From Alphaproteobacteria bacterium (lineage in GTDB: Bacteria > Pseudomonadota > Alphaproteobacteria > UBA9219), in NCBI GenBank assembly GCA_019233975.1, contig JAFALY010000035.1:65819-129818 (forward strand): a DNA stretch of 64,000 nt. Direction: 5' to 3'. Of the stretch, positions 28,230 through 42,487 are shown one piece after another. The notes under the pieces are model-generated. The model did not search any database. It worked only from the letters and a program-made list of their open reading frames with translations, and was not told the origin of the DNA. Every line of letters starts with the position of its first letter. Positions within the stretch are counted from its first letter, which is position 1. The translations under genes and the position numbers were made by a program.

Positions 28230-28306
28230 CGCGTTGCAGCTTAACAATACTTTAAAGACTTAGGGATAACCCTAAGGGGATATCCTTCCCAAGCTTGTGG
28301 TTCGTT

Positions 28307-29428
28307 ATGGCCGACAATTACCTTAAACCGATGCTGGACCCCGGTTCGGCGCGTGTTTTCAATATCAATGTGATGACCCGTCGCCTGATGTCGAAAGACC
28401 CGGCGGCGAAGCCTTTCTTCAACAATCCGAAATTCAACGTGATTGTGCTGATTAAGGACACCGTTCCCGAAGCCGAACGCAAAGGTAACGTACCGCCTAT
28501 CGGCACCAAGCTTTATATACCGTTCAATGAACATGATATTTACGAAGGTGGCCGCACCATCTTTTTGCATAACCAGCATTTGCAGCAGGCGCTGACGGAT
28601 CAGTTCGGCGTTGTGACGGGCGTCACGCCTGAAATGCTGCTGGATGATATGAACAAGCTGAAGGTTCTGGACAGCATGCCGTCGCTGGACCCGTTCCTCC
28701 TCAAGGACCTGTTCATGCGGTCGAACATGACCGTGAATGAACTGTATTTTGAAATCAGCCAGGAACAATGGCATGAAATCGAATTGTACATTCTGCAGCG
28801 CTTTGAGCCATTGGTGAAGGCGGCCTATCCGGATGCCATGCAATTTGACGAAAAGGCCCGGCAATTGATCGGTAAAATCTGGGAAGCCAACGATATGACC
28901 GCCCTGCAGCCATTGATTGAAGCATTCCGCTTCCCAACCGACCGCGCTTTGGAAATTTTTGGTGCATGGAAGGGCATCAATTATTACTCCTTCCAGCATA
29001 CAAAATTGAAGAAGCAGCTTCTGGATATGGCGACATGGCTTAAGACCGTGGCAGTGCCCCCCGGCGTTATGTCGCGCACGGAAAGCATGGAACTGATGGC
29101 GACGCTGAATGCCGGCAAGGAAGCGATGCTGAAGGAGTGGCAAAAGGTCGAAGGCATCCTGCGCAGCTATAACGAAGGTTATGACAAGATGTTCAAGGAA
29201 CAGGCCGGGTCCACGCAGTTCCTCGACTTCTTGCGCAACTCGGCCCGCCATTATTGGGATTTGGGCAACAGCATGGGCCGTATCAGTCACGTAACCTATT
29301 GCTGGCACGTCTATACCGGCCGGTATAAGGACAGAAAGCTGCCCTGGCCTGAAACGTTGCAGACAATCAAGCTGTTTACCGACATTATGACGCCGGACCG
29401 CAAGGCCAACACGGCTATGGCCTGGTAA
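28307..29428 (+). CDS. hypothetical protein of about 374 aa, no recognisable domain
   Basis: GC3-rich, diverse amino-acid composition. The antisense 413-aa ORF is Arg/His/Gln-rich and looks spurious. The start is uncertain (TTG at 28295 or ATG at 28307). Confidence 0.5.
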   Translation: MADNYLKPMLDPGSARVFNINVMTRRLMSKDPAAKPFFNNPKFNVIVLIKDTVPEAERKGNVPPIGTKLYIPFNEHDIYEGGRTIFLHNQHLQQALTDQFGVVTGVTPEMLLDDMNKLKVLDSMPSLDPFLLKDLFMRSNMTVNELYFEISQEQWHEIELYILQRFEPLVKAAYPDAMQFDEKARQLIGKIWEANDMTALQPLIEAFRFPTDRALEIFGAWKGINYYSFQHTKLKKQLLDMATWLKTVAVPPGVMSRTESMELMATLNAGKEAMLKEWQKVEGILRSYNEGYDKMFKEQAGSTQFLDFLRNSARHYWDLGNSMGRISHVTYCWHVYTGRYKDRKLPWPETLQTIKLFTDIMTPDRKANTAMAW

Positions 29429-29430
29429 GG

Positions 29431-30216
29431 CTACTTTAAATCCACCACAACGGGGACGTGGTCGCTTGGCTTCGGTTCCCATCCGCGCGCTTCACGGATA
29501 ATGTGCGCCGCTTTCAGGCGTGGTGCCAAATCAGCCGTGACCCAGATATGGTCCAGACGTCGCCCGCGGTTGGATGCAACCCAATCCTGCGCGCGGTAAC
29601 TCCACCACGAATACAGCTTCTCACTATCCGGAACAAAGTGGCGCAGGGCATCGGTGCCGCCGAACGCCTTTTGCCAGGCCGTGAATTTTTCCACTTCAAC
29701 GGGCGTGTGCGACACGACGTCCAGCATCTGTTTATGCGACCACACGTCATGCTCCAGCGGTGCGACGTTCAGGTCACCCACCAGAATGCTGGAATGATTT
29801 TTGCGCTTCTTCCACCAGCGGGTCTGGTCATCCATAAAACCCAGCTTGTGCGCGAATTTCGGATTAGCCACAGGGTCGGGAATATCGCCGCCTGCCGGAA
29901 CGTAACAGCAATGCAGTTCGGTGCCGTTTGGCAATGTTGCCGCTATGTGGCGGCGGTCTTCTTTATCCTGCCAGTGATGTTCCCTGGGCGCCGTCAGCGG
30001 CAGGCGCGATATAATCGCGACACCGTTATAGCTTTTCATGCCATGGATATGCTGGTGGATATAACCGCGTGTTGTGAAGGCGGCGCGCGGGAAATCCGCG
30101 TCGATCACCTTGGTTTCCTGCAGGCATAAAACGTCCGGTTTGACGGAGTCCAGCAGGTGCTCGACCAAACCGATGCGTAGCCGTACAGAGTTGATATTCC
30201 AAGTAATAATGCGCAT
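29431..30216 (-). CDS. xthA: exodeoxyribonuclease III
   Basis: 'MRIITWNINSVR' and 'DVLCLQETK' EEP-fold motifs. The start is set at the Met preceding RIITWN. Confidence 0.85.
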   Translation of the reverse strand: MRIITWNINSVRLRIGLVEHLLDSVKPDVLCLQETKVIDADFPRAAFTTRGYIHQHIHGMKSYNGVAIISRLPLTAPREHHWQDKEDRRHIAATLPNGTELHCCYVPAGGDIPDPVANPKFAHKLGFMDDQTRWWKKRKNHSSILVGDLNVAPLEHDVWSHKQMLDVVSHTPVEVEKFTAWQKAFGGTDALRHFVPDSEKLYSWWSYRAQDWVASNRGRRLDHIWVTADLAPRLKAAHIIREARGWEPKPSDHVPVVVDLK

Positions 30217-32488: not shown

Positions 32489-33121
32489 ATGAATCATATT
32501 CGCACACACCGCACCGCGCGTGGCTGGAGCCTGCAGCAGCTGGCCGATGCCGCGGGCACATCCAAAAGCCAGATCGACAAACTGGAAAAGGGTGAACGTC
32601 GCCTGACGGTCGACTGGATGGTACGGCTGGCGCGTGCGCTTTCTTGTGACCCGCGTGACCTGATGCCCGAGGCTGGCCTTGGCGGCGCTTTGGAACGTTC
32701 GGCCGCCAATGAAGATCGCCCATTTGCCGATTCCCAACATCTGATACCGGTGCGTGGCGCCGCGCGCGGTGGCGACCGGCAGGAAATGTTTTTGGCTGAT
32801 GGTCCCATTGACCATGTGCCGCGTCCTTATTATCTGGCGCATGTGCGCGACGCCTATGCCATTTATGTGGTTGGTACATCCATGGTGCCGATGTACAGGC
32901 CACGCCAGCTTTTATTCGTCAACCCGTATAAGCCGCCCGCGCCCGGTAACGGCGTTGTTATCATCGACCATCGCGGCGCCGTGTTGATTAAGGAATTTGT
33001 GCGCCAGAAACCAACCGGTGTTGTGGTGCGCGAATATCAACCGGCCCTGCGCGACTTTACCGTGGCACAGGATGATGTTGCGACCATGCACGCGGTTGTA
33101 GGTGCGGCAGAGCCGCAATAA
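32489..33121 (+). CDS. LexA/CI-like repressor: N-terminal XRE HTH plus C-terminal S24 peptidase domain
   Basis: HTH 'RGWSLQQLADAAGTSKSQIDKLEKGER', S24 Ser motif 'VVGTSMVP' and a downstream Lys in 'VLIKEF'. Confidence 0.75.
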   Translation: MNHIRTHRTARGWSLQQLADAAGTSKSQIDKLEKGERRLTVDWMVRLARALSCDPRDLMPEAGLGGALERSAANEDRPFADSQHLIPVRGAARGGDRQEMFLADGPIDHVPRPYYLAHVRDAYAIYVVGTSMVPMYRPRQLLFVNPYKPPAPGNGVVIIDHRGAVLIKEFVRQKPTGVVVREYQPALRDFTVAQDDVATMHAVVGAAEPQ

Positions 33122-33137
33122 ACAGACTGAATGGCGG

Positions 33138-34367
33138 TCAGCGTCGCGGCAGCAAACGCGCATCTTGCGGCGTGGGGTCGGCATAAATCGGCCATGCGGC
33201 ATGGTGCATCAGGGCTTCCTGTACCAGATGTTCCAGCAATTCGCTGAATAACATCGGGTTCTCACGCGACGCTTCCCACAGGAAATAACCGAATGAACCC
33301 GGTATGGTGTTCGCTTCATTGAACCAGACCTGACCCGTGGCGCCATTGCACAGGAAATCGAGGCGCGGCGCGCCTGCGCATGCCACGCTGTCAAACACCA
33401 TGGTGGCCCAACGGCGTATATTGGCTTCGGTTTCCGCAGGCAGTTCGGGGTTGATGGTACGCGTCAACGACAACATGCCTTCGCTCGCGCAGCCCGGGGT
33501 TTTGCTGCCGTCGGTTTTTGTGCCGGCTTTGGTGCCGTTGCCGCCGACATATTTGGTTTTGAAGTCCAGTAATGCGTTGGTGCGCTTGGGGCATTCAATG
33601 GCGGATGTGATAACGCGCCCGCCCCGGCGGCACACCGCCACGTTATATTCAACCAGATTATCGACAAAAGGTTCCAGCAAGGCCGTGTCGTCATAACGGA
33701 AAATACTGGCCGTCAGCACGTCCGATACTTCTTCGTATGATTTGACCATCGACACACCGATACTGCTGCCCATATGTGCGGGTTTGATGCAGCAGGGGAA
33801 GCTGACATCCGGCAACAGTTTCCGTAATTCGTCGGGCGTGATGAGCGTTCCCTCTGTCGGGCGGCGAATTTCCCAGAAAGGCAGGACGGGCACGTCCAAT
33901 CCCGCCAGAACGCGCTTGGTCGCCGCCTTGTCCATAAAGGCGGATGACGCCAGCACACGCGCGCCTGTATAGGGGACATGCGCCGTTTCAAACAAACCCT
34001 GCACCGCGCCGTCTTCGCCGATTGCGCCATGGAAGGCCAGAAACGCGACATCGAACGGAATGGTTTTTGTCCTGCCAAAAAAAGAGGTGCGACGCGTGAT
34101 CAGTTGCGGCTGACGCGGGCAGGACAGGTCCAATACAACCTCGGTCAAGGCGCCGCGTGTTACGTTGTCCAGCATATAACTGTTGCGGTGACGCAGCGCT
34201 TCGCCGGTCAACCACGCGCCGTCTGGCGCCACATAAAGCGGGATGGCCTCGAACAGGGTTGGGTCAAAGGCGGACAGGGCCTGCAAACCGGTGATGATGC
34301 TGACATCATGTTCGGGCGAACGCCCGCCAAACATCACCAGAATCTTCTTACGTTGTGTTGCGGACAT
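33138..34367 (-). CDS. D-alanine--D-alanine ligase family ATP-grasp enzyme (atypical, 410 aa)
   Basis: Ddl N-terminal signature 'KILVMFGGRSPEHDVS', 'DKAATKRVLAGLDVPVLPF', 'PCCIKPAHMGSSIGVS' and C-terminal 'RLDFLCNGATGQVWFNEANTIPG'. A ~45-aa Gly/Thr/Lys-rich insertion and a ~60-aa C-terminal extension are not found in canonical Ddl. Confidence 0.7.
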   Translation of the reverse strand: MSATQRKKILVMFGGRSPEHDVSIITGLQALSAFDPTLFEAIPLYVAPDGAWLTGEALRHRNSYMLDNVTRGALTEVVLDLSCPRQPQLITRRTSFFGRTKTIPFDVAFLAFHGAIGEDGAVQGLFETAHVPYTGARVLASSAFMDKAATKRVLAGLDVPVLPFWEIRRPTEGTLITPDELRKLLPDVSFPCCIKPAHMGSSIGVSMVKSYEEVSDVLTASIFRYDDTALLEPFVDNLVEYNVAVCRRGGRVITSAIECPKRTNALLDFKTKYVGGNGTKAGTKTDGSKTPGCASEGMLSLTRTINPELPAETEANIRRWATMVFDSVACAGAPRLDFLCNGATGQVWFNEANTIPGSFGYFLWEASRENPMLFSELLEHLVQEALMHHAAWPIYADPTPQDARLLPRR

Positions 34368-34481
34368 GGGGCAGATTTTCGCTTTCCAGACTATCGCTTT
34401 TCGGCTTGCTTCGATGAATAAAGTTTGGTGATCATAGGCCATGCCAACTGCGCAGCGCAAGTTGCGCGGCAATCTTTACCG

Positions 34482-35261
34482 ATGCAGGGTTTTGTGAACG
34501 ACGCCCCCCTTTCTTCCATCCATTACCGCCTGTCCGGCGTGGCGTTGGAACAGGCGTCACGCGTGTTTGTCTGGGGCCATGGCTGGGGGCAGAGCGGGCA
34601 GGTTTTCGCCCCTATGGCCGAATCATTGCCACAGGCGGCGCATATACTGCTCGACTTCCCCGGTTTTGGCGCGTCACCCCTGCCGCCCGCCCATTGGGGC
34701 GTTGCCGATTACGCCGATGCCTGTGCCGCACTGCTGGACACCCTGCCGTTGCCGGGCAAAGAGGTCATCTGGGTCGGGCATTCTTTTGGCGGTCGCGTGG
34801 GCGTCAGTTTGGTCGCGCGGTATCCGGGCAAAATTACCAAATTGTGCCTGGTCGCGGCGGCCGGGCTGAAGCGCCGCCGTCCCTGGTACCAGAAACTGCG
34901 GTCCGGGATACAGGTCGCTTTTTTCAAAACCTTGCGTCGTTTGCCATGGCATCTGGCGTGGGTTGAACGCATGAAGTCGCGCATGGGCAGTGCCGATTAC
35001 AGGAATGCGGGCGCCATGCGTCCGGTGTTCGTGCGTGTTGTGAATGAAGATCTGGCCGCCACCGCGCTGCAGATACGCTGCCCGACTTTACTGATTTACG
35101 GCGGGCGGGACACTGAAACGCCGCCCAGTATGGGCGAAGATTATGCCCATCTGATACCGCAGGTGCGCTTTCTGCTGGCCCCGGACGCTGATCATTACTC
35201 CCTTTTGGGCGCGCATCGCGCGATTGTCATGAAATGGATCAAGGAATTTACGGGATGCTGA
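34482..35261 (+). CDS. alpha/beta-fold hydrolase
   Basis: Nucleophile elbow 'GHSFGG' plus 'HGWGQS' and a C-terminal 'DADHYS' (Asp-His). The alternative start is 34425. The stop overlaps the next gene's ATG (ATGCTGA). Confidence 0.7.
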   Translation: MQGFVNDAPLSSIHYRLSGVALEQASRVFVWGHGWGQSGQVFAPMAESLPQAAHILLDFPGFGASPLPPAHWGVADYADACAALLDTLPLPGKEVIWVGHSFGGRVGVSLVARYPGKITKLCLVAAAGLKRRRPWYQKLRSGIQVAFFKTLRRLPWHLAWVERMKSRMGSADYRNAGAMRPVFVRVVNEDLAATALQIRCPTLLIYGGRDTETPPSMGEDYAHLIPQVRFLLAPDADHYSLLGAHRAIVMKWIKEFTGC

Positions 35262-36853
35262 ATTTTGACAACGGCGCTATGGCCATCGTCCTATTATCGG
35301 CGTGCGGGTTTTGCTATCGCCGCCTGCTGCGCTACTTGCATATGTTCCAGCAGGATGATTATAACGAAGTGCGTCTGCTACAATGGTTGTGGCATACGGG
35401 CTCATTCGATCGTCGCATTTCTATAGCCTTGGTATTGATCGCCTTGCTGGCGGTTTGGGTTTTGTCTCCGTCCTATGCCGCCTTGGCCGTTGCGTTACTG
35501 TTCGCTGTTGCCGCGTGGCGCGAACCTGACCCCCGTGTGGCGGGTAAAAAGAAACTGGTCATCACGCAACGTGCGCGCCGCATTCTGGTGATGGCGTGCC
35601 TGTTGCAGTTCCTGCTTATACTCGCAGTCGGCATTAAAATGCAGCCTGTCGCATGGGTCTTGGCTGTGCAGTTTGTGCCCTTGGCCGTTGTGATCGGCAA
35701 TATCCTGCTGCGCCCCGTGGAAGCGCGTATTCAGGCCAAGATTATGCGCGAAGCCGTGCAGCGGTTGCAGCAGGTCGCGCCAAAGATTATCGGCATCACC
35801 GGGTCATTCGGCAAAACATCCGTCAAACACATTCTGGGCCATGTGCTGGAAGTGAACGCGTCCACGCTCTATACGCCGGGCAGCGTCAATACGCTCATGG
35901 GCATTTCGCGCATTATCCGCGAGAAATTGCCGGACCAATGCCGCTTTTTCATTGTGGAGATGGGAGCCTATGGCGTGGGGTCTATTACACGCCTGTGCCG
36001 TTTCACGCCGCCTGATCTGGGCATTATCACGGCGATCGGCGAGGCACATTATGAACGTTTCAAAAGCCTGGATGGCGTGGCGCACGCCAAGTTCGAATTG
36101 GCCGACAGCGTATGGCGTAAGCCAGATGGGCAGATGGTCCTGCATCAGCAAACACTGTCACAACCCTATGCCGCCGGTCAGGTGGCCGCGCATCGTGGGC
36201 AGGCCTGGGTGTGCGGAGCGGGTCCCGATGCGGATGCTGCTGTGCAAGATGTGCAAACAACGCCACAGGGGTTGACGCTGTCCCTTACGTGGTGCGGCAT
36301 GACCTATGCGCTGCAAGTGCCATTGTTCGGCAAACATCACGCGGACAACGTGGCACTGGCATTTGTGGCGGCGGCCACGCTTGGTATCGCGCCTGAGAAA
36401 ATTGTCTATGCGTTGCGTACCGTGCCACAGATCAAGCACCGGCTGGAGGTTAAAAAGCAAGGTGATATGACCCTGATCGACGACGCGTTCAATTCCAACC
36501 CGCGCGGTTTTGCCGAAGCGGTTGATGTGATGGCGTTGCTGGCATCGGCGGGGCAGGGCCGCGCCATTTTGGTGACGCCGGGTTTGGTGGAGTTGGGCGA
36601 GCGGCACGATCAGGTGCATCATGATCTGGGGGTCCATGCAGCGCAGAAAAGTGATGTCGTATTGGCGATTGCTCCCGATCGTATCCCCGATTTCATTACC
36701 GCCATCCAGCAAACCGCGCCGGGTAAAACGCTTTTACTGATGCCGACCATGGCGGCGGCATTGGCATGGGTGCGCGATAATGCGCGTGCAAGCGACGTTG
36801 TGCTGCTTGAAAACGATTTGCCGGATTTGTACGAAGCGCGCCTCAGCCTCTAA
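35255..36853 (+). CDS. Mur-ligase family protein (MurF-like) with an N-terminal polytopic membrane domain
   Basis: Residues ~1-170 hold 4-5 hydrophobic helices. These are followed by 'IIGITGSFGKTSVK' (Mur-ligase P-loop), 'DDAFNSNP' (MurF DDSYNANP-like) and 'IKHRLE'. Confidence 0.7.
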   Translation: MLNFDNGAMAIVLLSACGFCYRRLLRYLHMFQQDDYNEVRLLQWLWHTGSFDRRISIALVLIALLAVWVLSPSYAALAVALLFAVAAWREPDPRVAGKKKLVITQRARRILVMACLLQFLLILAVGIKMQPVAWVLAVQFVPLAVVIGNILLRPVEARIQAKIMREAVQRLQQVAPKIIGITGSFGKTSVKHILGHVLEVNASTLYTPGSVNTLMGISRIIREKLPDQCRFFIVEMGAYGVGSITRLCRFTPPDLGIITAIGEAHYERFKSLDGVAHAKFELADSVWRKPDGQMVLHQQTLSQPYAAGQVAAHRGQAWVCGAGPDADAAVQDVQTTPQGLTLSLTWCGMTYALQVPLFGKHHADNVALAFVAAATLGIAPEKIVYALRTVPQIKHRLEVKKQGDMTLIDDAFNSNPRGFAEAVDVMALLASAGQGRAILVTPGLVELGERHDQVHHDLGVHAAQKSDVVLAIAPDRIPDFITAIQQTAPGKTLLLMPTMAAALAWVRDNARASDVVLLENDLPDLYEARLSL

Positions 36854-38790: not shown

Positions 38791-40230
38791 TCAATAACTG
38801 CCCGGGCTCAATACTAAACAGGCCTGACCCTTGCTGGTCAGGTCGGTGCAGACCGTTTGCGCGGTCTGCGCATCAAGGTCCAGAATACGCGCGCGGTAAA
38901 TGGTGGCCTTGCCGTTACTCATTTTCTGCAATTCCGGACGGGCTGTTCCCAACAATTGAGGCATACCGTTGATGGTGTTGGCCAGAGATTGCCGTCCGAC
39001 ATCGACATCACTATAGGCGCCAATCTGTATCGCATAACGCGTGCTGTCCGCCGGGGGAGCCGCACTTACGGCCATGCTGCCGCCATGCGTGGCGGGGGCC
39101 GTAGCGCCGACAATTACCGGAGTGGGTGCAGCAGTATTATCATTGGCGGCCTGTACGGTTGCCACTGCGGGCGTCGGGGTTGGTTTGACGGGCGGTCTTG
39201 CTGTCACAAAAACGGCATCCGCGCGCGGCGGCAGGCGGATCGCGCTGCCGACTTTAATGGTCGATTCTTCCTCTTCGCTGTCATTGTTATCGCCCTGTGC
39301 TTCATCCTGACGCACGGCCATAACGCGACCTGTGCGTTGTTCTTCATGCGCGCGCTCAAAGGCGTCATCCAGCAACTGCGCCATGTGGTTATCACGCGCG
39401 ATGGCGGACTTGCCGCCGAACACAACGCCGATCAGGCGGAGATTGCCGCGCTTGGCGGACGCAACCAGATTGAACCCCGAGGCGCGGATATAACCGGTCT
39501 TGATGCCATCCATGCCGTCATAACGTTCTTTCAAATGGTTGTGGTTGTGATGCGCAATACCGGCATAGGTAAAACTGTCGTGATCGAAATAGGGGTAGTA
39601 GTGCGGGAAATGATAAACCAACGCATGTCCTAACAATGCCATATCGTGTGCCGTCGTTACCTGACCCGGGTCCGGCAGGCCTGACGGATTATTGAAATGT
39701 GTGTGCATCATGCCCAGCGCGTGCGCTTGTCGCGTCATCATCGCGCCAAAACCTTCTTCACTGCCCCCCATCCATTCGGCCAGAACAACGGCGGCATCAT
39801 TCGCGGATTCCGTGACCAGACCTAAAATGGCGTCTTCGACGCGGATGCGCTGCCCGGGGCGCAGGCCCAATTTAGAGGGGGCCTGTTCGGCAGCGTTTTC
39901 CGATACGGGCAAATATTGGTTCAACCCCAGCCGCCCGGCATCCAGCGCCTGAAAGGTGATGTACAGCGTCATCATTTTTGTCAGCGAAGCCGGATGGCGG
40001 ATGCTGTCGGCGGCTGTGGCGTGCAGGACCTCACCCGTTTCCGCATTAATCACCAAGTCGGCATAGCTGGCGCCATGGTCGACCAGAGCATGCGCGTGCT
40101 TGACCTTTTTGTGCCCTTTGTGATGCTTTTTGGGGGCCGCCCAAGCATGGCCTGAAGACAAGCATAGGGCTAACATTATGATAAATAAAAGGGATTTTTT
40201 TATAAGAGAACTGTTTCGCATAGCATCCAT
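38791..40230 (-). CDS. D-alanyl-D-alanine carboxypeptidase (S11, PBP5/6-like) with a C-terminal SPOR domain
   Basis: SxxK 'SLTKMM', 'SGFN' (SxN) and 'KTGY' (KTG). The C-terminal 'YAIQIGAYSDVDVGRQSL...ATIYRARI' is SPOR-like. Signal peptide present; the exact start (40221/40230/40284) is uncertain. Confidence 0.8.
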   Translation of the reverse strand: MDAMRNSSLIKKSLLFIIMLALCLSSGHAWAAPKKHHKGHKKVKHAHALVDHGASYADLVINAETGEVLHATAADSIRHPASLTKMMTLYITFQALDAGRLGLNQYLPVSENAAEQAPSKLGLRPGQRIRVEDAILGLVTESANDAAVVLAEWMGGSEEGFGAMMTRQAHALGMMHTHFNNPSGLPDPGQVTTAHDMALLGHALVYHFPHYYPYFDHDSFTYAGIAHHNHNHLKERYDGMDGIKTGYIRASGFNLVASAKRGNLRLIGVVFGGKSAIARDNHMAQLLDDAFERAHEEQRTGRVMAVRQDEAQGDNNDSEEEESTIKVGSAIRLPPRADAVFVTARPPVKPTPTPAVATVQAANDNTAAPTPVIVGATAPATHGGSMAVSAAPPADSTRYAIQIGAYSDVDVGRQSLANTINGMPQLLGTARPELQKMSNGKATIYRARILDLDAQTAQTVCTDLTSKGQACLVLSPGSY

Positions 40231-40409
40231 AGCGGGTTTGATTCGCCGTTCGTCCAGATTCGGCTTAATGAATCCAGAAATCAAGGACGCGGTTACGCAC
40301 TTGACAGTATATTCTCAATATCGTTAAAATTGTGCAATGCAATATGATCGTGGAAGCGATGTTGCAAGGGCCGAAAAAAGCCCGACCCTCGAACCAGTAC
40401 AGGTTATCG

Positions 40410-41164: not shown

Positions 41165-42487
41165 GTGGTCAAGATTGTTTGTATCCATACCGCCAACGTC
41201 ACGGACAGGCTTATTAACACCGGGATCGTGGACTATACTGCGTTGATGGCGGCCTTGCAGGGCAAGGGGGATCAGATCGCCGGCTTGTTCATGTCCGATG
41301 CGGCGTCCGCTGATTTGCGGATACCGGATGCCTGGCCCGGTTATGACGATCATCTATCTGCCGAAGAATCCATGCGCCAGTTCCCGCAAGAAGAGTTTCA
41401 GACAATGGTCGGTGCGGCGGCAATGTGCGAAAAAGCTTTGCCTGTATTGGTCGTCAATATGGGCGAGCGTACCGGTTTCCGTCTTTCGCCTGAGACATTG
41501 CACAACTATCCGGTTGTTGCCGTTTCTCACGAATTCATGCGATTGGATGGGGAGCGAAGGATCTTGCGGTTGCGGCAATTTTGTGCGGCCGACCAAATTC
41601 TGTTTACAAACGAAGAAGAACGCGATGCGGCCCTGACCGCTATGCGCGATGTTTTTGGCGACGCGCGCGCCGCCAGTATGGCACAAAAAATTTCAGTCTA
41701 CCCCGTGCCATCAAACATTGTGCCGCCGGCCCGATTGGCAGAGCCGACTGATCGTGCCCCGAACGTCGTGGTTTTCGGCGTCATCAAGGCGCGCAAGGGG
41801 TTGGAAAAAGTGCCGCTCATGGCGCAACAGATCAAAGACGACCCCACGCTGACGGGCCGCAAAATAATTCTGATGGGTTCCGTTCCGACCCATGGCGGCG
41901 AAGATGGACAGGATGGCGGTTCCATCTTGCGTGATTTGCTGCCCCAGGTCTTCGGCCCGCAGGAGGGGCTTGCTGGCAAAAGTGACGCGGATCTGGTCGT
42001 CCTCGCCCTGCAGCTGGAGCGGTCAGTACGTCTTGAGGATCGCCTGCTGCCCATCGAATTACGGTTGAATGAGCCGATGGAGGAAGTCAGTCACGTCCTC
42101 AGTCAAAACCGTTATTGCTTCCTGCCGTTGCCGCGTGGTGCGACGGGGCATAGCGGGACGCTGGCGGCGGCGCTCGAACACCATATGATCACCTTCATTG
42201 CGCGCAATCCGGACGGGTTGACGCCGGACATATTGCAAAACGGGTGCGTTTATTTGCCCGACAGGCCGGAAGATTTCGTGGTCACCATGAAGCGGCATGA
42301 AAAGGAACAAGCCCGCAACCCCCGTATGGAGACGGCGATGGTTGCCGCGGGCGACCCCTATCGCGACGCGATAGGCTGGCCGGGTCTTATACGTCTGGTG
42401 AATGGCATGGCACGCAAAGCGGTTGCATTGCATTACGGTAATCAGGCCATAGCGGATGCCACTTGTGCGGCAGATTGCGCGTTATAA
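41165..42487 (+). CDS. hypothetical protein, possibly a divergent GT-B (GT4-like) glycosyltransferase
   Basis: C-terminal 'NVVVFGVIKARKGLEKV...KIILMGSVP' and 'RGATGHSGTLAAALEHH' loosely resemble GT4 retaining-GT motifs. This is weak. Confidence 0.3.
   Translation: MVKIVCIHTANVTDRLINTGIVDYTALMAALQGKGDQIAGLFMSDAASADLRIPDAWPGYDDHLSAEESMRQFPQEEFQTMVGAAAMCEKALPVLVVNMGERTGFRLSPETLHNYPVVAVSHEFMRLDGERRILRLRQFCAADQILFTNEEERDAALTAMRDVFGDARAASMAQKISVYPVPSNIVPPARLAEPTDRAPNVVVFGVIKARKGLEKVPLMAQQIKDDPTLTGRKIILMGSVPTHGGEDGQDGGSILRDLLPQVFGPQEGLAGKSDADLVVLALQLERSVRLEDRLLPIELRLNEPMEEVSHVLSQNRYCFLPLPRGATGHSGTLAAALEHHMITFIARNPDGLTPDILQNGCVYLPDRPEDFVVTMKRHEKEQARNPRMETAMVAAGDPYRDAIGWPGLIRLVNGMARKAVALHYGNQAIADATCAADCAL

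Follow-up and report, generated by a model that had tools for sequence, protein, structure and literature searches.

The window analysed here is a 64,000-nucleotide stretch of contig JAFALY010000035.1 (GenBank assembly GCA_019233975.1) from an Alphaproteobacteria bacterium. It carries a three-gene module composed of a membrane-embedded Mur ligase of the MurF type, an α/β-fold serine hydrolase encoded immediately upstream of it, and, on the opposite strand, an ATP-grasp enzyme of the D-Ala-D-Ala ligase family, referred to below as Ddl'. We give an even chance to the proposition that this module performs the last cytoplasmic step in the assembly of the peptidoglycan stem peptide and does so at the membrane. 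The proposition draws on gene content, domain architecture, conservation of catalytic residues, synteny, and the position of the ligase domain as the sister clade of MurF. Neither the chemistry nor the two ligase families are new. What appears to be undescribed is a five-helix membrane domain replacing the uridine diphosphate (UDP)-binding domain, a near-constant hydrolase partner, and the placement of these genes in the murF and ddl slots of dcw (cell-division) gene clusters.

A MurF-type ligase with a five-helix membrane domain

Pfam recognizes two domains in the ligase, Mur_ligase_M and Mur_ligase_C (Table 1), and detects no Mur N-terminal domain, be it PF01225 or another; amino acids (aa) 1–175 have no match even at E ≤ 1, and the same scan shows PF01225 in the canonical MurF of a Micavibrio-like locus (L003). 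The best NCBIfam match is TIGR01143 (murF), with 200.9 bits against a cut-off of 288.6, covering aa 174–525 of the 539-aa open reading frame (ORF) and only positions 65–403 of the model; the next Mur class, MurD, reaches 62.9 bits. MurF is also the closest class when the ligase is compared with the sequences of solved structures. The top ten PDB matches found by Foldseek are all MurF (E 6e-22 to 2e-17, 20–27% identity), including Pseudomonas aeruginosa MurF bound to UDP-N-acetylmuramic acid (UDP-MurNAc)-tripeptide. Neighbour joining, with MurC, MurD, and MurE as outgroups, recovers the membrane ligases as a monophyletic group (100/100), and likewise the sampled MurFs (100/100). The two clades are sisters (99/100), although, given that the MurF sample was taxonomically narrow, the membrane ligases may nest within the wider diversity of MurF.

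All residues that are invariant among Mur ligases are kept in the family, as judged from an alignment of 108 ligase sequences with 28–70% identity. Those of the central domain are the P-loop G183-S-F-G-K187-T-S (G183-x-x-G-K187-T/S), E235, H265, and K279, the last of which occupies the position of the carbamylated lysine of MurD, MurE, and MurF. N365 is invariant as well. In the C-terminal domain, H395, R396, D410, N413, N415, and T441-P-G...E446 are invariant, and the MurF-like DDxxNxNP motif is present as DDAFNSNP. Full-length homologues, each of about 530 aa, number more than 2,000 and can be aligned end to end; automatic annotation calls them MurF or 'Mur ligase family protein', and the plain MurF label hides what sets the membrane ligases apart.

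Hydropathy places five hydrophobic helices at about aa 4–21, 53–68, 72–89, 105–128, and 131–152, with loops rich in lysine and arginine between them, a pattern that fits a topology in which the N-terminus would lie outside and the catalytic domains in the cytoplasm. AlphaFold2 also builds these helices, with high confidence (pLDDT, the predicted local distance difference test, 94.4 for the whole ligase, with a predicted template modelling score of 0.91, and 94.7 for the membrane domain alone). In the model, the fifth helix (aa 141–174) continues directly into the P-loop strand (about aa 177–189), and the ATP site should therefore lie close to the membrane surface. The membrane domain has no Pfam family and no solved structural relative, and it is conserved to the same degree as the catalytic domains. 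Throughout the 108 sequences, Q32, Y36, K98, T104, R106, P154, and E156 are invariant and H29, R40, W44, K99, and N149 nearly so, R40 and N149 being invariant in a 30-sequence alignment of the membrane domain. These residues sit in an amphipathic Q-Q-x-x-Y segment after helix 1, in the KKKLVxTxRAxR loop linking helices 3 and 4, and in helix 5. Searched as a profile, the domain retrieved 2,323 representatives, clustered at 50% identity (1,207 of them at E ≤ 1e-10), among 1.84 billion cluster representatives. Among the best 150 matches, the domain is N-terminal in all save one garbled fragment and no protein is longer than 566 aa; the short matches inspected were frameshifted or truncated copies of the membrane ligase. 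This is, then, a conserved domain, previously undescribed.

Partner enzymes and gene order across phyla

To judge from its domains and catalytic residues, Ddl' is a genuine member of the Ddl family. Pfam finds Dala_Dala_lig_N (4.9e-26) and Dala_Dala_lig_C (3.9e-28), and annotation pipelines name the protein Ddl, while the best NCBIfam models, NF002528 (217.9 bits vs a cut-off of 262) and TIGR01205 (208.9 vs 245.65), stay below threshold. For residue comparison, the window copy and 68 Ddl' proteins defined by their neighbourhood (69 rows) were aligned with Escherichia coli DdlB; the reference residues at the numbered positions match the literature numbering, which is used for Ddl' throughout. 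E15, S150, K215, Y216, R255, D257, E270, N272, and L282 are kept in 69/69 rows, save for one gap at E15. The position of S281 is occupied by tyrosine or phenylalanine in 69/69, that of Y210 by leucine in 68/69, and that of E148 by leucine, serine, or methionine; in the omega-loop, an insertion of 8–30 residues with a conserved GM motif follows K215-Y216.

The hydrolase (Abhydrolase_1, 8.2e-23) has EstV lipase, PcaD, and BioH as its nearest NCBIfam families, all far under cut-off, the best curated subfamily being EstV with 92 bits against 300. An HGW oxyanion motif, the nucleophile Ser101 in the GHSxG form (GHS101FG) of the GxSxG elbow, and the acid and histidine of the triad, Asp210 and His238, each recur in at least 95% of 67 family sequences, as does S170-x-D172-Y173, a family-specific motif in a basic cap. 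Because the triad and the oxyanion motif are kept, the hydrolase is predicted to be an active enzyme. Ddl' had been called atypical in a preliminary description of this DNA, and the scores show all three proteins to be so: Ddl' and the ligase fall under the NCBI curated cut-offs for Ddl and MurF, and the hydrolase reaches no curated subfamily.

Gene order was compared in 82 loci with relatives of the ligase, 80 from a scan of one genome per species and two fetched separately. All three genes are adjacent in 66 of them, in at least eight phyla, and most of the other 16 loci end at a contig edge; the arrangement is far beyond chance. The hydrolase gene lies directly upstream of the ligase gene, forming a coupled pair in about 75/82 loci, with an estimated gap of −25 to +203 nucleotides in 71 of 72. 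A gap of more than about 200 nucleotides between the two occurs in one locus only, which is poribacterial and has a 439-aa ORF inserted there (L058, 7451–8770). Ddl' adjoins the pair in 68/82 loci, downstream on the same strand (46), upstream and divergent (19), or upstream on the same strand (3). Carriers among the Alphaproteobacteria include Hyphomicrobiales, Kordiimonas, Sphingomonadales, and Micavibrio-like metagenome-assembled genomes; others belong to Acidobacteria, Bacteroidales, Lachnospiraceae and other Clostridia, Bacilli, Erysipelotrichaceae, Chlamydiae, Melainabacteria, Poribacteria, Omnitrophota, and further groups, and the ligase family is frequent among cultured haloalkaliphilic Bacillales and Paenibacillus. 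The closest relatives of the window (L085 and L086) have a ligase 71% identical to its own and the same gene order. When all neighbours were clustered all against all, the only widely shared partners were dcw genes and an M15 peptidase; VanH- or VanT-like genes and genes for lipid or polymer synthesis were not recurrent near the module. A search of the plasmid database PLSDB returned canonical MurF only and not the module.

In 17/82 loci, from several phyla, the module is part of a dcw/mur cluster or borders on one. In three poribacterial loci (L057, L058, and L073), the order is rsmH-ftsL-ftsI-murE-hydrolase-membrane ligase-Ddl'-mraY-murD-ftsW-murG-murC, with the trio in the position of murF. 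In six Micavibrio-like loci (L004, L010, L012, L013, L015, and L025), it is within dcw in the order mraY-murD-ftsW-murG-murC-murB, hydrolase and ligase on the other strand, and Ddl'-ftsQ-ftsA-ftsZ-lpxC, so that Ddl' takes the canonical ddl slot. No canonical murF stands between murE and mraY in these Micavibrio-like loci. At its usual place there is only a small conserved ORF of 150–190 aa that belongs to no Pfam family (L004, 18369–18827; L010, 18809–19381; L013, 9474–9932; L015, 18406–18876). The module also abuts murC-murB in two loci, one of them melainabacterial (L030 and L043), and murE in an Erysipelotrichaceae locus (L081).

Outside dcw, an apparently separate and unusual ddl-murF pairing is seen in a small clade, where a tandem double Ddl of 806–810 aa, with two sets of Dala_Dala_lig_N/C, is encoded directly upstream of a canonical MurF (L003, 3437–7308; L087, 7573–11437). 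Because MurF of the L003 type pairs with the double Ddl outside dcw, carriers with the module embedded in dcw might keep a canonical murF elsewhere.

The M15 gene, a homologue of D-Ala-D-Ala dipeptidases (PF01427; the PRK10178 and VanX models stay under cut-off), adjoins the module in at least ten loci (L001, L003, L007, L008, L030, L064, L080, L084, L085, and L086). In the closest relatives of the window, it lies between Ddl' and the hydrolase (L085, 8406–9230; L086, 6880–7704), where the window has a 114-bp spacer; either the gene was lost in the lineage of the window or it was gained in that of the relatives. A histidine kinase and a response regulator flank the module in Dichotomicrobium, and a penicillin-binding protein gene follows it in Pseudalkalibacillus.

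Gene layout in the window

The three ORFs lie where the preliminary description had put them, with its family assignments upheld by Pfam (Table 1). The same holds for the polytopic nature of the ligase, borne out by hydropathy and AlphaFold2, for the translational coupling of hydrolase and ligase, to whose overlap the gene caller assigns identical boundaries, and for the conservation of the trio as a unit. The frame of Ddl' is open as far as 34472 (33138..34472, minus strand); the ATG at 34367 is taken as the likely start because it gives the N-terminus common to homologues and is the choice of the gene caller. For the hydrolase, the gene caller prefers a GTG at 34494, which yields 255 aa. A consensus scan found no sigma-70-like promoter in the divergent intergenic region.

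Table 1. Coordinates of the module and its parts within the 64-kb window
Feature	Coordinates	Strand	Description
Ddl'	33138..34367	−	D-Ala-D-Ala-ligase-family ATP-grasp enzyme, 409 aa; Pfam Dala_Dala_lig_N/C
Divergent intergenic region, Ddl'/hydrolase	34368..34481		114 bp; sequence reading
α/β-fold serine hydrolase	34482..35261	+	259 aa; Abhydrolase_1
ATGCTGA, ligase start codon over hydrolase stop codon	35255..35261	+	Sequence reading; gene-caller boundaries identical
Membrane-embedded MurF-type Mur ligase	35255..36853	+	532 aa; gene-caller product identical
Five-helix membrane domain, ligase aa 1–175	35255..35779	+	In place of UDP-binding domain 1 of Mur ligases
Mur ligase central (ATP-binding) domain	35795..36373	+	PF08245 (Mur_ligase_M), 8.1e-30
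Mur ligase C-terminal domain	36437..36808	+	PF02875 (Mur_ligase_C), 1.3e-10; binds incoming amino acid/dipeptide

By tblastn, no dcw gene was found in the 64 kb, and neither was a second ddl, a second murF, or an M15 dipeptidase; VanH and VanT are also missing from the window. The preliminary description had noted the absence of dcw genes correctly and had concluded that the trio are paralogues. That absence proves nothing of the kind; in the Micavibrio-like relatives it is Ddl' that fills the ddl slot of dcw, and no canonical murF stands between murE and mraY.

The genes around the trio, encoding a helix-turn-helix (HTH)-S24 repressor, a DUF2336 protein, an S11 peptidase, and APRT, are conserved with the module in the closest relatives only. 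The repressor, LexA/CI-like with HTH_3 and Peptidase_S24 domains (32489–33121, plus strand), is convergent with Ddl' and kept in sister loci only; in several loci besides these (L002, L003, and L004), HTH regulators unrelated to it stand next to the module. An S11 D-Ala-D-Ala carboxypeptidase is encoded about 2 kb from the module (38791–40284, minus strand). It has a long linker rich in proline and alanine, and its C-terminal tail is SPOR-like at a level under cut-off (PF05036, E = 0.04, 14.7 bits); it recurs in a sister locus and is not kept with the module elsewhere. Two ORFs of 377 aa (28295–29428) and 440 aa (41165–42487), both on the plus strand, belong to no Pfam family. Genes matched in size and position, again without Pfam matches, are called in the source contig (L088), of whose 129,952 bp the window corresponds to about bases 135–64134, and one matching the first ORF is called in L085/L086. 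A 413-aa antisense ORF (28241–29482) that fully overlaps the 377-aa ORF is probably spurious. No tRNA, tmRNA, or Rfam family at the gathering threshold was found in positions 1–64000.

The proposed reaction, its alternatives, and known systems

For the substrates, the membrane-level acceptor, and the role of the hydrolase, we infer the following scheme. Ddl' would join two D-amino acids into D-Ala-D-Ala or a closely related dipeptide. The P-loop strand of the ligase comes straight after the fifth helix, which would hold the enzyme at the inner face of the membrane; there, it would phosphorylate the free carboxylate of a muramyl-tripeptide precursor and add the dipeptide to it. The place of the UDP-binding domain would be taken by the five-helix domain, whose cytoplasmic loops are basic and conserved. 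The membrane surface is therefore the probable site at which the acceptor is bound, either as a lipid-linked precursor of the lipid I/II type or as UDP-MurNAc-tripeptide passed on beside MraY. In Mur ligases, UDP is bound by domain 1, and family members without this domain (MurT, PgsB/CapB, FPGS, and the M domain of CphA) use non-UDP acceptors, which makes a membrane-associated, possibly lipid-linked, acceptor plausible. The coupled Ser-Asp-His hydrolase, clearly part of the machine, would most likely prepare or edit the acceptor, for instance taking off a terminal residue or an ester and so exposing the carboxylate; trimming or de-esterifying the acceptor is our best guess at its reaction. 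In relatives, the M15 dipeptidase may control the dipeptide pool.

Several observations weigh against this scheme. The ligase lacks a UDP-binding domain and scores below the curated MurF cut-off; to our knowledge, every characterized MurC–F or Mpl enzyme has such a domain. Ddl' combines an aromatic residue at the Ser281 position with the omega-loop insertion, and its dipeptide may therefore not be D-Ala-D-Ala; Ser281 is present in all characterized Ddl and Van ligases known to us. The nearest families of the hydrolase are esterases and lipases rather than peptidases, so homology does not speak for the proposed editing role, and in a few loci (L028, L036, L065, and L075) the ligase has no adjacent hydrolase. 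In most phyla, the module is found outside dcw. In the Micavibrio-like locus L003, the genes for M15, hydrolase, and membrane ligase are immediately preceded by one for a canonical MurF with three domains, and Bacillales that carry the module also have an essential ddl-murF pair. Finally, the recycling genes mpl, ldcA, and ampG were not recurrent near the module in the neighbour clustering.

A narrower version of the proposal, which we hold tentatively and regard as improbable, is that the D-Ala-D-Ala terminus is added after MraY, onto lipid-linked muramyl-tripeptide at the cytoplasmic face, with the membrane domain binding the polyprenyl-diphosphate carrier. Poribacteria and Micavibrio-like bacteria would use it as their main route; elsewhere, the ligase and hydrolase would provide a repair route for lipid-linked precursors without a proper terminus. 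If true, it would amount to a previously unknown ordering of the peptidoglycan pathway in the former two groups.

Stem-peptide remodelling similar to that of Van systems is an unlikely explanation, although parts of the data speak for it. Here, Ddl' would make D-Ala-D-X, the membrane ligase would add it, the M15 enzyme would destroy D-Ala-D-Ala, and the hydrolase would remove canonical termini or an ester. The altered end of the stem peptide would confer tolerance to agents that target D-Ala-D-Ala or be used by a dedicated transpeptidase. The recurrence of VanX/DdpX-type M15 genes, which extends to the closest relative of the window, is consistent with this, as are the two-component system in Dichotomicrobium, the penicillin-binding protein in Pseudalkalibacillus, and the module's accessory character in L003, where canonical MurF is also present. 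The second-substrate subsite of Ddl' is altered as well (S281 to tyrosine or phenylalanine, Y210 to leucine, and the loop insertion), but the housekeeping Ddl of Helicobacter pylori probably has similar substitutions and still makes D-Ala-D-Ala. Moreover, K215-Y216 of the omega-loop is invariant, whereas D-Ala-D-Lac ligases lack the omega-loop tyrosine, and the Van models stay far under cut-off, the best being VanG (138 bits vs 495), with the D-Ala-D-Lac ligase model giving 109 vs 550. No VanH- or VanT-like gene recurs, the M15 gene is absent from the window and from most loci, and the module was not found on PLSDB plasmids. In the dcw clusters of Micavibrio-like and poribacterial loci, Ddl' is the sole ddl, which also argues against a remodelling role.

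The preliminary description had favoured a role apart from housekeeping peptidoglycan synthesis. In the form weighed here, a dipeptide or amino acid would be ligated onto a carboxylate embedded in the membrane (such as a fatty acid, an amino-lipid, or a polymer), and the lipase-like hydrolase would supply or release the acceptor. The absence of a UDP-binding domain agrees with it, given that the known Mur-family enzymes without domain 1 all use non-UDP substrates. The conserved polar residues of a membrane domain without a solved relative agree with it too, as does the kinship of the hydrolase with EstV lipase and BioH-type esterases. Yet the ligase is specifically MurF-like, down to its C-terminal domain and DDxxNxNP motif, and sister to MurF; the CphA and MurT models give 18 and 19 bits, PgsB does not appear among the matches, and no gene for lipid or polymer synthesis recurs nearby. 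Together with the repeated placement in dcw/mur clusters (17/82 loci), the murF slot in Poribacteria, and the recurrent VanX/DdpX-type dipeptidase, these findings speak against such a role, which we consider improbable. Still more doubtful is the plain housekeeping view that Ddl' and the ligase are simply the ddl and murF of the lineage, the membrane domain a mere tether, and the hydrolase an unrelated neighbour. The names given by annotation pipelines, the intact catalytic residues, and the occupied ddl and murF slots in some lineages would be accounted for. Against it stand the sub-cut-off scores of both ligases, the coupling of hydrolase to ligase in about 75/82 loci across phyla with the triad kept, and a membrane domain as conserved as the catalytic domains. 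A canonical MurF stands alongside the module in L003, the family is common in Bacillales and Paenibacillus, which carry canonical ddl-murF, and the window genes are far from any dcw gene.

As enzymes of the cytoplasm, MurF and Ddl belong to textbook knowledge, and both are recognized targets for antibiotics (D-cycloserine and, indirectly, vancomycin). The membrane ligases amount to roughly 1,200–2,300 representatives at 50% identity, found in gut Bacteroidales, Lachnospiraceae, Bacillales, Chlamydiae, Poribacteria, and many Alphaproteobacteria. If they act on a membrane-bound precursor, either the accepted order of the cell-wall steps is altered or a repair or remodelling branch is revealed. 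The preliminary description knew of no system with this architecture, and none was found in the searchable literature, a coverage that takes in papers other than those available by subscription only; a paper on Lipocone/VanZ membrane domains describes neither the five-helix domain nor the operon, and one on MurE-MurF architecture has nothing on a membrane-anchored MurF.

Among known systems, cyanophycin synthetase (CphA) shares with the module the combination of ATP-grasp and Mur-type chemistry, and PgsB shares a membrane-anchored ligase of the Mur family. The module departs from CphA and PgsB/CapB in having a true Ddl as its ATP-grasp enzyme and a genomic setting of dcw/mur genes instead of polymer synthesis. 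The cyanophycin logic proposed in the preliminary description thus falls away: the TIGR02068 model gives 18 bits against a cut-off of 850, the ATP-grasp and Mur proteins are separate, and the former is of the Ddl type with the full set of catalytic residues. Identity with PgsB/CapB was likewise rejected, PgsB not being among the NCBIfam matches of the ligase. The resemblance to MurT/GatD is one of logic only, namely, a Mur-family ligase without a UDP domain, a hydrolase-type partner, and a membrane-bound precursor; the partner in the module is an α/β hydrolase and not a glutaminase, MurT has no membrane domain, and the MurT model scores 19.3 bits against 800. Van-type clusters (VanA/VanX, and murF2 in some actinomycetes) also combine Ddl-family and MurF-type ligases, and they are approached by the many relatives with an M15 gene and, sometimes, a two-component system. 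They differ in that the module has no VanH or VanT and keeps the omega-loop tyrosine, Ddl' stays far under the cut-offs of the Van models, M15 is found in relatives and not in the window, and the module is chromosomal rather than plasmid-borne.

The closest counterparts are the housekeeping enzymes themselves. Similar to DdlA and DdlB, Ddl' has both Pfam domains and the catalytic set, and it occupies the ddl slot in Micavibrio-like dcw clusters. It departs from them at S281 (tyrosine or phenylalanine), Y210 (leucine), and E148 (leucine, serine, or methionine), in the GM insertion of 8–30 residues, and in scores under the TIGR01205 and NF002528 cut-offs. The ligase shares with MurF the central and C-terminal domains, the P-loop, the Mg-binding glutamate and histidine, the carbamylated-lysine position, and the DDxxNxNP motif, and MurF is its closest relative by hidden Markov model, fold, and tree. 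In addition, its gene has a ddl for a neighbour, which recalls ddl-murF operons, and in poribacterial dcw clusters it sits in the murF slot. Unlike MurF with its three-domain architecture, the ligase carries a five-helix membrane domain instead of UDP-binding domain 1, scores below the TIGR01143 cut-off, and forms a separate monophyletic clade that is nearly always paired with a serine hydrolase.

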